Assembly: GCA_964424615.1 (NCBI GenBank)
Contig: CAYRIU010000033.1
Span: 247 to 64,246, forward strand
Direction of reading: 5' to 3'
DNA from: an uncultured Gammaproteobacteria bacterium
Lineage (GTDB): Bacteria; Patescibacteriota; Patescibacteriia; UBA1558; GWA2-36-10
DNA: 64,000 bases
Shown here in pieces: positions 12,645 through 43,294 of this stretch. Position 1 is the first letter of the stretch; each line of letters begins with the position of its first letter. The translations under genes were made by a program, and so were the position numbers. The notes beneath the pieces were generated by a model. That model did not search any database. It saw only the letters and a program-made list of their open reading frames with translations, and was not told where the DNA came from.

Positions 12645-12929
12645 ATGAAACAATATTTTGTTTATATTTTAGCCAGTAAGAATAATAAAGTTATCTATAT
12701 TGGTATTACTGATGATCTAGTGGGAAGAGTTTGGCAACATAAAAATGATGTAGTTGAAGGCTTTACCAAAAGATATCAAGTGCACAAGTTGGTATATTAT
12801 GAAATTATAGAAGATGTGACGGAGGCAATTTTAAGAGAAAAAAGAATGAAGAAATGGAAGCGTCAATGGAAAAATAATGTGATAAATGGATTTAATCCTA
12901 ATTGGGATGATTTGTATGATCAATTATAA
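12645..12929 (+). CDS. small GIY-YIG nuclease family protein (UPF0213-like), copy 1
   Basis: N-terminal YFVYILASKNNKVIYIGITDDLVGRVWQHKN GIY-YIG motif, 94 aa; followed directly by a palindromic repeat element. Confidence 0.7.
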   Translation: MKQYFVYILASKNNKVIYIGITDDLVGRVWQHKNDVVEGFTKRYQVHKLVYYEIIEDVTEAILREKRMKKWKRQWKNNVINGFNPNWDDLYDQL

Positions 12930-12962
12930 CACAATATATTATTAGATTTTGCATTTTATTTT

Positions 12963-13063
12963 GTCATTCCTGCGAAGGCAGGAATCTAGCTTGAGTAATG
13001 TTTAAGCGAGATCCCGCAACAAGTGCGGGATGACAGGTATAAAGCTGCGGATTCCAGAATGAC
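12963..13063. repeat. palindromic multi-hairpin repeat element, family A, copy 1
   Basis: GTCATTCCTGCGAAGGCAGGAATC (8-bp stem, GAAG loop), spacer, GATCCCGCAACAAGTGCGGGATGAC (8-bp stem), then a degenerate third module; terminal GTCAT...ATGAC. Confidence 0.75.
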
Positions 13064-15199: not shown

Positions 15200-15222
15200 T
15201 TAAAAAAACATTTACTCAGACT

Positions 15223-15305
15223 GTCATTCCCGCGAAGGCGGGAATCTACCATTATTTTGCCGATTGGCCAATCAGTGGTAGATCCCGCATCAAGTGCGGG
15301 ATGAC
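15223..15305. repeat. palindromic multi-hairpin repeat element, family A, copy 2
   Basis: GTCATTCCCGCGAAGGCGGGAATC, central hairpin containing the perfect palindrome GATTGGCCAATC, then GATCCCGCATCAAGTGCGGGATGAC; same architecture as the copy at 12963. Confidence 0.8.
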
Positions 15306-15324
15306 AATAAAGTAAATGGTTTTT

Positions 15325-34985: not shown

Positions 34986-35197
34986 AATAAATTTTTTCCC
35001 TATAAAATTTGGGAGTTTTTCTAATAAATGCCCCCACACAATATCAAAATATAAAGAAAATGTCAAGATTTATGATTTGGCTTATTTTTAGCTTTTTTTG
35101 GCCTTTCTTTATATCAAGTGAAACCCTTGCCAAATACAAACTTTTGTGTTAATATGTCCCTACCTTTAAGGTTTATTTGAGCCTTAATTTTAATTAA

Positions 35198-35253
35198 TTC
35201 ACCCTGTTAAATGCCCGCTATGCGGGCAACCCGAAGGGTTATTTAACAGGGAC
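35198..35253. mobile_element. 56-bp MITE-like solo element: the same 15-bp terminal inverted repeats as the GIY-YIG element at 39213, enclosing only a 28-nt GC hairpin
   Basis: TTCACCCTGTTAAAT (35198-35212) ... GCCCGCTATGCGGGCAACCCGAAGGGTT ... ATTTAACAGGGAC (35241-35253). The 17-nt AATTCACCCTGTTAAAT is identical to the left end at 39211. Sits in the rpsB 5' leader. Confidence 0.65.
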
Positions 35254-35377
35254 ATCAAGTATTTTGTCTTTTAGTCCAAGATCCTTCTCTCATAAAAGAG
35301 AGCGCTTGGGCCACAAAATACGGGTTTATATCCACCAATGTTCAATGCTTGGCGGATTAAAGAAAGGAAAGAATAAT

Positions 35378-36067
35378 ATGGTTACTATTCCCTCATTAGA
35401 GGAATTGTTGAAGAAGGGTGTCCATTTTGGTCACAAGACTTCCAAACGTCATCCCAAAGCTAGTCGCTACATTCACACTGATCGTAATGGTGTGCATATC
35501 ATCGACTTGCAAAAAACTGTCGACTCCTTACCAATGGTTTTGCAATTTGTTGAAAAGATTGTCAAAGCCAATGGTCAGATTTTGTTTATCGGTTCCAAAA
35601 AACAAGCTCGCGAAATTGTAAAAAATGCTGCTGAATCTTGCCAATCACCATACATCATTGGTCGTTGGTTGGGTGGTACTTTTACCAATTTTGAAAACAT
35701 CGTCAAATTGACTCGCAAGTTAGAGAAAATGGAAAAAGACGAGGAAGATGGTGTCTGGGAGCTTTATACCAAAAAAGAACAAGTCAATTTTCGTAAAGAA
35801 CTAAATAAATTGAGAGAGAATGTCGGTGGCATCAAGGCTATGAAACGTCTACCACAAGCTATCTATGTGGTGGATATCATCAAAGAAAAAACTGCTGTCA
35901 GCGAAGCTCGCAAGATGAATATTCCTATCATTGCTATGACTGATACCAATGTCAATCCAGAGTTGGTCACTCATGCAATACCTGCCAATGATGACGCTAT
36001 CAAATCTATAGAGACTATCACCAATCTATTGGCAGAAACCATCAAAGAGGCTAAGGCTACAAAATAA
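35378..36067 (+). CDS. rpsB: 30S ribosomal protein S2
   Basis: MVTIPSLEELLKKGVHFGHKTSKRHPK... canonical S2; start at the internal Met. Promoter TTGCCA-17-TAATAT at about 35119-35148. Confidence 0.9.
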   Translation: MVTIPSLEELLKKGVHFGHKTSKRHPKASRYIHTDRNGVHIIDLQKTVDSLPMVLQFVEKIVKANGQILFIGSKKQAREIVKNAAESCQSPYIIGRWLGGTFTNFENIVKLTRKLEKMEKDEEDGVWELYTKKEQVNFRKELNKLRENVGGIKAMKRLPQAIYVVDIIKEKTAVSEARKMNIPIIAMTDTNVNPELVTHAIPANDDAIKSIETITNLLAETIKEAKATK

Positions 36068-39177: not shown

Positions 39178-39212
39178 TTGTATAATGACCTTTTAGGAAT
39201 AATTTGCTATAA

Positions 39213-39507
39213 TTCACCCTGTTAAATAAATTTAAATTTTCTTTAGTTATGCTATACTATACTTATGTATTACTAAGTAAAAAAGTTAATAAATTTTATA
39301 CTGGCTATACAAAAAATTTAAATTTAAGATTTAAGCAACACAATAAAGGTAAGGTAGAGTCTACTAAAGATAGAAGGCCCTTAAAGTTAATTTATTATGA
39401 AGCTTGCTTAAATCAACAGGATGCAACTAAAAGAGAAAAATATTTAAAAACGTATTTAGGCAAATTATTTATACATAATAGGCTTAAATCTTATTTAACA
39501 GGGTAAA
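39213..39507 (+). mobile_element. candidate GIY-YIG-encoding mobile element bounded by 15-bp terminal inverted repeats
   Basis: Left end TTCACCCTGTTAAAT (39213-39227). Right end ATTTAACAGGGTAAA (39493-39507) is its reverse complement, 13/15 match. A related solo copy exists at 35198-35253. The ends occupy the whole ricT-gap intergenic space. Confidence 0.6.
39249..39506 (+). CDS. small GIY-YIG nuclease family protein, copy 2 (element cargo)
   Basis: YYTYVLLSKKVNKFYTGYTKNLNLRFKQHN GIY-YIG motif, 85 aa. The last codons (LTG-stop) lie inside the right inverted repeat. Confidence 0.7.
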   Translation: MLYYTYVLLSKKVNKFYTGYTKNLNLRFKQHNKGKVESTKDRRPLKLIYYEACLNQQDATKREKYLKTYLGKLFIHNRLKSYLTG

Positions 39508-42972: not shown

Positions 42973-43052
42973 CCCACTGTAGCTTAGCCGATGAAAGCAC
43001 CCAGGTAATAAGAGCTGGGAGATCGTAGGTTCAAATCCTACCAGTGGGACCA
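42973..43052 (+). tRNA. tRNA-like gene with encoded CCA and a non-canonical 10-nt anticodon loop (identity undetermined; could be an unusual tRNA or a pseudogene)
   Basis: Acceptor CCCACUG/CAGUGGG. D-arm GCUU-AGCCGAUGA-AAGC. Anticodon stem CCCAG/CUGGG enclosing GUAAUAAGAG. Variable AGAUC. T-arm GUAGG-UUCAAAU-CCUAC, discriminator A, CCA. Own promoter TTGACA (42931)-16-TAACAT and terminator at 43086. Confidence 0.55.
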
Positions 43053-43187: not shown

Positions 43188-43294
43188 AACCCCGTAGCTC
43201 AACTCGATAGAGCAGTAGGTCATCCACGAGTGCCTACTACGGGCGCTGATAAAAAAGTGCCCGTGTGGTGGTTCGAATCCACCCGGGGTTCCCA
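43188..43294 (+). tRNA. tRNA-like gene (104 nt plus CCA) with 13-nt anticodon loop and about 29-nt variable region (identity undetermined)
   Basis: Acceptor AACCCCG/CGGGGUU. D-arm GCUC-AACUCGAUA-GAGC. Anticodon-position hairpin GUAGG-UCAUCCACGAGUG-CCUAC. Long variable arm ACGGGC-N14-GCCCGU. T-arm GGUGG-UUCGAAU-CCACC, discriminator C, CCA. Own promoter TTGACA (43145)-16-TATTAT and terminators at 43305-43359. Confidence 0.5.

Follow-up and report, generated by a model that had tools for sequence, protein, structure and literature searches.

The leader of rpsB in a Patescibacteriota genome poses a question about origin and function. We analysed 64,000 nucleotides of contig CAYRIU010000033.1 (assembly GCA_964424615.1), a stretch referred to below as the window, in which a short inverted-repeat element lies in the 5' leader of rpsB and the same repeats bracket a small GIY-YIG nuclease gene. 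Is the leader element a regulatory hairpin of the S2/EF-Ts operon, a relic of a transposon, or something else? The best explanation, to which we assign a probability of about 0.7, is that it is a gene-less ("solo") copy of a family of repeats folding into a perfect three-way junction, that the junction would act as single-stranded DNA (ssDNA) substrate of the 85-aa nuclease, and that this copy is a passenger in the leader. The functional part of this explanation draws on analogy with known nuclease and repeat systems.

The solo element and the rpsB leader

The first-pass annotation had described two repeat ends around a 28-nt GC-rich double hairpin, and the sequence is as described apart from an offset of 2 nt. 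The left end, AATTCACCCTGTTAAAT, occupies 35196-35212 and has an exact second copy at 39211-39227; the right end, ATTTAACAGGGAC, is present at 35241-35253, and the 28 nt between the repeats consist of GCCCGCTATGCGGGC (35213-35227) and AACCCGAAGGGTT (35228-35240). At the core (35202-35251) there are two abutting hairpins inside an 11-bp inverted repeat, CCCTGTTAAAT/ATTTAACAGGG. Across the 64 kb, CCCTGTTAAAT or its complement occurs exactly four times, as the inverted pairs 35202/35241 and 39217/39493. A search of the window at up to one mismatch gave no copy beyond these four, and the extra matches at up to two mismatches were all unpaired and chance-like. The repeat is perfect over 11 bp (15 bp with the TTYA of the family consensus), and the whole element measures 54-58 bp and is non-coding. 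As had been noted, it lies about 40 nt into the roughly 215-nt leader that runs from the predicted promoter (35127-35155) to the ATG at 35378. The features of this region are listed below, where P1 is the outer stem of the junction and P2 and P3 are its inner arms.

35127-35155, plus strand: predicted rpsB promoter TTGCCA-17-TAATAT, sigma-70-like, 5' of the solo element, from a consensus scan; kept in all aligned relatives
35198-35255, unstranded: solo three-way-junction element in the rpsB leader, TTCA-P1-hairpin-hairpin-P1-ACAT; boundaries uncertain by some 4 nt
35202-35212, plus strand: solo P1 5' arm CCCTGTTAAAT, from exact repeat and fold
35213-35227, plus strand: solo GC-rich hairpin GCCCGC-TAT-GCGGGC, arm P3 when read on the minus strand; this type recurs in other solo copies
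35228-35240, plus strand: solo hairpin AACCC-GAA-GGGTT, arm P2 when read on the minus strand
35241-35251, plus strand: solo P1 3' arm ATTTAACAGGG, from exact repeat and fold
35259-35321, plus strand: long rpsB-leader hairpin GTATTTTGT...ACAAAATAC, 3' of the insertion and untouched by it, from folds and compensatory variants in relatives
35378-36067, plus strand: rpsB, ribosomal protein S2 (Pfam PF00318, E 1.3e-81)

Folded as RNA, the solo segment forms P1 and the two abutting hairpins at -29.4 kcal/mol (z = -5.4), and as DNA it reaches -20 kcal/mol on either strand (z = -7.2). Both of its loops are 3 nt long.

For comparison we used homologues of the window's S2 and GIY-YIG proteins, took as relatives those contigs that encode an S2 82-96% identical to that of the window, and aligned their L31-rpsB spacers. 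The alignment extends over the promoter, both the first and the long leader hairpin, and the Shine-Dalgarno region. The element is present in three same-species contigs (L001-L003), while 11 relatives with 82-94% identical S2 (L007-L016 and L217) have an empty site, TTAATTAATC followed directly by ACAAGTATTTTG, in a leader that can otherwise be aligned. Because these relatives lack the element at an otherwise conserved site, it is a recent insertion in the rpsB leader rather than an ancestral hairpin, and the comparison shows that it entered the linker between two leader hairpins after the split from relatives with 93-94% identical S2. The leader alignment had been proposed in the first-pass annotation, with conservation of the 56 bp in distant relatives as the sign of an ancestral structure; no such conservation was seen. 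An ancestral cis-regulatory hairpin of the S2/EF-Ts operon that resembles the ends of the GIY-YIG element would fit the location in the leader, near a conserved S2-leader hairpin. However, this idea is refuted by the 11 empty leaders, which otherwise align base for base, and the identical motif stands in unrelated intergenic contexts in many phyla, leaving it with next to no credence.

One of the relatives with an empty leader, L217 (S2 94% identical), carries the GIY-YIG element at the same site between PSP1 and gap, with the same flanks, so the resident gene-bearing copy predates the solo insertion. In the closest S2 relative (L218, 96% identical), a 21-nt mini-hairpin, TCCCGTGAAACAGGATTAACA, occupies exactly the insertion site (about 170-200, rpsB leader) and could be what is left of the same insertion after a collapse. 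A further polymorphism was seen in the same L31-rpsB spacer, 5' of the rpsB promoter: L008, L011 and L217 have a palindrome of about 140 bp inserted there, with CCCCGCTGAAT...ATTCAGCGGGG as its terminal repeats; the window and other relatives lack it, and it belongs to a separate family resembling miniature inverted-repeat transposable elements (MITEs).

It had also been suggested that the transcribed element could alter autoregulation by S2. When the leader RNA was folded with and without the element, the 5' hairpin and the long leader hairpin were predicted identically, and the element folded as a self-contained module, so that these models lend the suggestion no support. Because the element folds on its own and relatives manage without it, we think that it is most likely tolerated as a passenger and does not act as a regulator. 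The idea of an attenuator was dropped because a terminator scan of the rpsB leader found none. The long hairpin at 35259-35321 shows compensatory changes in relatives (GTATTTTGT/ACAAAATAC versus GTATTTACTTG/AAGTAAATAT), with GGGTT directly after it; it had no Rfam match and is probably the actual S2 autoregulatory structure.

The gene-bearing element and its repeat family

The second inverted pair of the window encloses the GIY-YIG gene, and the solo copy shares the architecture of this longer element. Its parts are as follows.

39213-39507, plus strand: full-length element, the GIY-YIG gene nested in a three-way junction; it lies between PSP1 and gap, immediately following the gap -10 box TGCTATAAT
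39217-39227, plus strand: full-length P1 5' arm, from exact repeat and comparative pairing
39228-39238, plus strand: P2 5' arm AAATTTAAATT, in the 5' untranslated region (UTR), from comparative pairing
39249-39506, plus strand: gene for an 85-aa single-domain GIY-YIG nuclease (Pfam PF01541, E 4.7e-16; 100% identical to protein P0002)
39315-39325, plus strand: P2 3' arm AATTTAAATTT, codons 23-26, from comparative pairing and reduced synonymous variation
39326-39335, plus strand: P3 5' arm AAGATTTAAG, codons 26-29, from comparative pairing; an A/T pair compensates relative to the consensus
39483-39492, plus strand: P3 3' arm CTTAAATCTT, codons 79-82, from comparative pairing
39493-39503, plus strand: full-length P1 3' arm ATTTAACAGGG, codons 82-85 (YLTG), from exact repeat and comparative pairing

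The right repeat is made by the last codons of the open reading frame at 39249-39506, TAT TTA ACA GGG, and P1 pairs the 5' UTR with codons 82-85. Across the family, the 11 nt immediately after the left repeat (AATTTTAAATT, 5' UTR) pair with codons 23-26 (AATTTAAAATT) as P2, and codons 26-29 (AAGATTTGAG) pair with codons 79-82 (CTCAAATCTT), directly 5' of the right repeat, as P3. The three helices meet with zero unpaired junction bases. The P2 loop contains the start codon and codons 1-22, the P3 loop contains codons 30-78, and the last four codons go into P1. In P3 of the window copy, AAG/CTT compensates relative to the consensus GAG/CTC.

Covariation was measured on an alignment of 73 distinct full-length elements. 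Standard pairs occupy 95.3% of cells, a figure that drops to 25-53% when the partners are slid by 1-3 columns. Double changes were found in 99 cells compared with 29 in shuffles, and none of 500 shuffles reached 99. Compensatory change affects 8 of 11 pairs in P2, 4 of 10 in P3 and 3 of 11 in P1, and some variants have replaced P2 wholesale (CGTTTCAA/TTGAAACG, AGCTTGAGG/CCTCAAGCT). The entropy of synonymous codons drops sharply over codons 23-29 and 79-85: Gly85 is GGG in 66 of 72 elements, compared with 3-14 of 73 for other invariant glycines, and Glu29 is GAG in 58 of 65. We relied on covariation for P2 and P3 because the AT-rich sequence offers many alternative pairings in single-sequence folding, and for the window's full-length copy these two arms are predicted on comparative grounds.

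The link between gene and repeat was shown in a protein-based, repeat-blind metagenome sample of 84 GIY-YIG genes recovered at tblastn E <= 1e-25 (83 from metagenomes plus the window's own), in 82 of which the left repeat precedes the ATG by about 30 nt and the gene ends in TAT TTA ACA GGG. The 199 kb around genes of the 85-aa type also contain nine unique solo copies, and locus L157 has one on either side of the gene. Pfam GIY-YIG spans residues 3-69 of the 85-aa protein, and no second domain was found in it. Thousands of relatives at 75-100% identity occur in Patescibacteria, Thermodesulfobacteriota and other groups, with a nearly invariant C-terminus, RLKSYLTG, and a survey of horizontal gene transfer names a GIY-YIG protein among the genes donated by Patescibacteria (PMC12455944). 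NCBIfam and PADLOC returned no informative family for the protein, and a tblastn search of plasmids gave only matches of the UPF0213/YazA type, which were of no use for placing the protein relative to Ssn. Some variant arrangements were also observed. Two diverged full-length junction elements lie within 1 kb of each other in L149 (696-950 and 1501-1755) and in L194 (626-880 and 1702-1956), and the 134-aa protein P0001 is a fusion of one and a half GIY-YIG copies. At about 8920-8960 in L015 (S2 88% identical), 5' of gap, only the last 35 nt or so of the GIY-YIG element are left, CTTAAATATT ATTTAACAAGG TAAAA, corresponding to the P3 3' arm and the P1 3' arm; this remnant is a decayed copy at the same locus.

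Solo copies were sought with the pattern CCCTGTTAAAT-N14-44-ATTTAACAGGG in one genome per species, 596 Gb in total, and at least 120 loci were recovered from Patescibacteria, Desulfobacterales, WOR-3, Omnitrophota, Bacteroidales, Cloacimonadota, Acidobacteriota and others. By a rough estimate, chance would yield only a few sites for 22 specified bases in this amount of sequence. Among the matches listed, the interior folds into two hairpins in 78 of 125 unique copies, and 66 of the 125 have no unpaired base between P1, hairpin 1 and hairpin 2, compared with 0.1 per 125 in composition-preserving shuffles. The arm sequences of solo copies are essentially free and only their pairing is conserved. 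The junction is thereby shown to be under selection for pairing in its solo as well as its gene-bearing form, and the solo copy in the rpsB leader is the minimal form of the full-length junction; its inner hairpins are miniaturised arms rather than filler, in keeping with the fold and with the pairing seen throughout the family. Several genomes have at least 3-5 copies among the matches listed, some with near-identical interiors at separate loci. Most of the listed solo copies lie between genes, and where the neighbours are co-directional both orientations are seen (20 versus 11). Because viral contigs gave one solo match and no relative of the gene, the element is not phage-borne.

These data also change how the 17-nt identity between the two copies of the window is to be read. 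The first-pass annotation was right that the element is gene-less and MITE-like and that it belongs to the inverted-repeat family bracketing the GIY-YIG gene, but the shared TTYACCCTGTTAAAT is the family consensus across phyla and loses its value as evidence of derivation from the resident copy. As its arms have nothing in common with P2 and P3 of the resident copy, the solo copy did not arise from it by recent deletion, and its interior resembles solo lineages of other Patescibacteria. Outside P1, four bases on each side are conserved (TTYA and TRAA), with no conservation farther out. The base pair at -2/+2 beside P1 is non-Watson-Crick in 63 of the 73 aligned elements (alignment columns 3 and 300), being C.A in 41 of 73 and T.G in 22 of 73, and the two flank types, TTCA...TAAA and TTTA...TGAA, are mutual reverse complements. 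This asymmetry suggests an asymmetric target site or a strand-marking mismatch.

Related nuclease and repeat systems

The system most similar to this one is that of the Ssn proteins, single-domain GIY-YIG nucleases of about 94 aa (CDD family cd10448) that bind and cut ssDNA only, beside cognate hairpin repeats (SRM; in Neisseria, NTS), and that do not bind RNA (PMC11893778). The SRM/NTS repeats flank the ssn gene and are also dispersed in up to hundreds of copies, and in Neisseria the system modulates natural transformation (PMC11893778). Its authors liken the architecture to insertion sequences (IS) and to REP/RAYT (Chenal et al., Nat Commun 2025, PMC11893778). The family described here is alike in its very small single-domain GIY-YIG protein (85 aa, compared with 94 aa for SsnA), in a gene bracketed by a cognate inverted-repeat structure that is also dispersed as mostly intergenic gene-less copies, and in a repeat sequence that is conserved across phyla. 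It differs in that the motif sequence is another one, which fails the SRM pattern, and that the structure is a perfect three-way junction, whereas Ssn repeats are single hairpins with an oriented 5' flank. The relation of gene to repeat is different as well: Ssn hairpins are complete and lie beside the gene, while here the gene is inside the repeat and its coding sequence supplies half of each of the three helices. As judged from sequence, the family would be a variant of Ssn-type nuclease and repeat systems, which are the closest known ones.

The window also allows a direct comparison, as it has a 94-aa Ssn-like GIY-YIG gene at 12645-12929. NTS-like hairpins lie at 12962-12989, 13007-13035, 15222-15249 and 15278-15306; the inverted pair after the gene consists of TGTCATTCCTGCGAAGGCAGGAATCTAG and its partner, and the second pair stands 2.3 kb from the gene, between two housekeeping genes. 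The SRM pattern matches three of these four hairpins, with 0.05 expected from shuffles, and the hairpin at 12962-12989 is a near-match. Around genes of the 85-aa type, by comparison, the pattern has one match in 199 kb, which equals the shuffled control. The 85-aa protein is 38% identical to the window's 94-aa protein (E 8e-11) and has a different C-terminus, RLKSYLTG. Because the SRM matches lie beside or near the 94-aa gene, this genome is predicted to carry a canonical Ssn-like system in addition to the 85-aa junction system. In the PSP1-gap spacer of L007, L008 and L217, NTS/SRM-like hairpin pairs (TGTCATTCCTGCGTAGGCAGGAATCTAG ... CCCGC..GCGGGATGAC) are found 5' of the gap promoter; as the window lacks them there, these repeats are also polymorphic for presence and absence.

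By analogy, REP/RAYT (REPtrons) and IS200/IS605 may also be compared with the junction family, since they combine short palindromic repeats acting as folded ssDNA with a small, flanked gene of nuclease type and many gene-less copies. RAYT and TnpA belong to the HUH/Y1 enzymes, whose intermediates are covalent, in contrast to the GIY-YIG hydrolase here, and REPs are simple hairpins rather than three-way junctions. Another candidate relationship concerns enzyme activity. The SLX1 branch of the GIY-YIG superfamily cuts branched DNA, which would fit a junction substrate. By sequence, the closest solved relatives of the 85-aa protein are of the UPF0213/SLX1 type (PDB 1zg2 and 1ywl, E about 1e-5), although this relationship is distant, and we know of no repeat association for UPF0213.

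In the anatomy of the family, P1 is the sequence-conserved outer stem of 11 bp, extended by TTYA/TRAA, and P2 and P3 are arms of free sequence, which adjoin P1 and one another without any unpaired base. In the full-length form the 85-aa gene is threaded through this junction, and in solo copies the loops are shortened to 3-5 nt. The comparisons above suggest how the system might work. By the Ssn/NTS analogy, the junction would form in ssDNA during replication, repair or DNA uptake, and given the homology to Ssn and the branched-DNA preference of SLX1 it would be the specific binding and cleavage substrate of the 85-aa nuclease. Their interaction may then underlie the maintenance and spread of both gene-bearing and solo copies. 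In the rpsB leader the element would be transcribed and would fold as an autonomous module.

DNA, RNA and other readings

A competing explanation is that the junction works as RNA. In the gene-bearing form it would affect the stability, processing or translation of the GIY-YIG mRNA, and solo copies would be stabilisers, RNase III sites or insulators, in this case modulating the rpsB-tsf mRNA. The solo copy does sit inside a transcribed 5' leader and has the very stable RNA fold given above, the covariation is equally compatible with RNA pairing, and solo copies show a slight excess in the same orientation as their neighbour genes (20 versus 11). On the other hand, sense-strand G.T pairs (G.U in RNA) are not in excess: they number 20, compared with 32 A.C pairs, each read as G.T on the antisense strand. 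One third of the orientable solo copies are antisense to their neighbours, and because in the window the gap -10 box abuts the element, a transcript from the gap promoter would begin within the 5' arm of P1. Rfam offered no matching family, with nothing relevant for the whole window at gathering thresholds or for the leader, the GIY-YIG element and the SRM region at permissive E-values. Relatives regulate rpsB without the element, and the homologous Ssn enzymes lack RNA binding (PMC11893778). We therefore lean towards the DNA level, which is favoured by the wobble asymmetry, the occurrence in both orientations and the position of the gap -10 box, and we regard the RNA explanation as rather unlikely.

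The term MITE-like raises the possibility of a classical MITE, that is, a deletion derivative of a transposon moved in trans by a conventional transposase that recognises its terminal inverted repeats in double-stranded form. Correia, RUP, ERIC and other bacterial MITEs are small and non-coding with terminal inverted repeats, and they frequently insert in 5' UTRs, where they are co-transcribed and can form stable RNA hairpins. The solo element resembles them in being small, non-coding, bounded by terminal inverted repeats, inserted in a leader and able to form hairpins, and the family also shows presence/absence polymorphism and multiple copies in several genomes. Correia, RUP and ERIC are derived from or mobilised by DDE transposases, however, and have target-site duplications. 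Here the partner gene is not a transposase: the only gene found with the same repeats encodes the 85-aa GIY-YIG nuclease, which has no known transposase fold, with the limit that the loci were not scanned for transposases. No target-site duplication is discernible at the filled versus the empty site. The filled site reads AATTCA, element, ACATCAAG, compared with AATCA followed directly by CAAG in the empty one, and a TCA repeat would need two extra differences; the flanks of the family as a whole show no duplication either. In the inner arms it is the structure that is conserved, while the sequence is free, something that a protein recognising terminal repeats in double-stranded DNA would not need. 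Among the 120 solo loci listed, one only (L131, 52%) contains a homologue above 50% identity in its 8 kb, and two contain distant ones at 35-37%. What stands of the earlier description is thus a mobile-derived insertion of the same family; a classical transposase-driven MITE is not supported, with no clear target-site duplication and a GIY-YIG nuclease as the associated gene, and we judge it improbable.

A site-specific recombination site of the integron attC or Xer/dif kind was considered as well. The attC core consensus heptamers are RYYYAAC...GTTRRRY, and attC sites act as folded ssDNA. The repeat contains both, GTTAAAT (GTTRRRY) and ATTTAAC (RYYYAAC), but in reversed order, with GTTRRRY at the 5' and RYYYAAC at the 3' side, and the attC-like reading of these heptamers was rejected because of this reversal. 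In addition, the junction is perfect and without extrahelical bases, and the associated gene is consistently a GIY-YIG nuclease and not a tyrosine recombinase, with the limit that the neighbourhoods had no scan directed at integrases. A recombination site of this sort therefore seems very improbable.

Several points weigh against a nuclease substrate acting as ssDNA. Covariation fits RNA as well as ssDNA, and the wobble (20:32) and orientation (20:11) tests are weak. The window contains only one solo and one full-length copy, and the SRM consensus HGTCWY..YYVSBRH..WNVSBRG..RNCYNB has no match to the solo element. In a single-sequence minimum free energy fold of the DNA, the window's full-length copy forms P1, not P2 or P3. 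The comparison of filled and empty sites leaves insertion boundaries that are blurred by 1-4 nt, with no convincing target-site duplication. Finally, that the 85-aa protein binds or cleaves the junction is something that we purely infer.

More broadly, the family may represent an undescribed selfish or domesticated class, common among Patescibacteria and further uncultivated, anaerobe-associated phyla. In this class a minimal GIY-YIG gene would run through its own junction substrate, and gene-less mini-junctions would be spread or maintained through action of the nuclease on folded ssDNA. This proposal is tentative, and we would put it somewhat below even odds. In the literature covered, which was incomplete, we found no description of the junction element or its architecture. 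If the proposal is true, the family would correspond to REP/RAYT among GIY-YIG enzymes, its substrate being branched DNA, and it would offer natural site-specific nucleases that act on branched ssDNA; the 85-aa protein and a 58-nt element could yield a new specificity for ssDNA tools. It would also extend the Ssn paradigm to a second, structurally different repeat and place it in the Candidate Phyla Radiation (CPR)/Patescibacteria and several uncultivated phyla. The gene is an unusual case of overlapping codes, as about 63 of its 255 coding nucleotides are also constrained into three helices, seen in compensatory and synonymous-site patterns. For annotation, the family accounts for a class of double hairpins, rich in GC, that stand in intergenic regions and 5' leaders of AT-rich CPR genomes and that might otherwise be mistaken for riboswitch-like or ribosomal protein leader structures.

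Two tRNA predictions made by ARAGORN in the window were noted in passing. At 43201-43292 it predicts a tRNA-Ser with anticodon ACT, for which Rfam is silent at the gathering threshold, and at 42973-43052 a tRNA with a four-base anticodon (ataa), which Rfam confirms as a tRNA at 55 bits.

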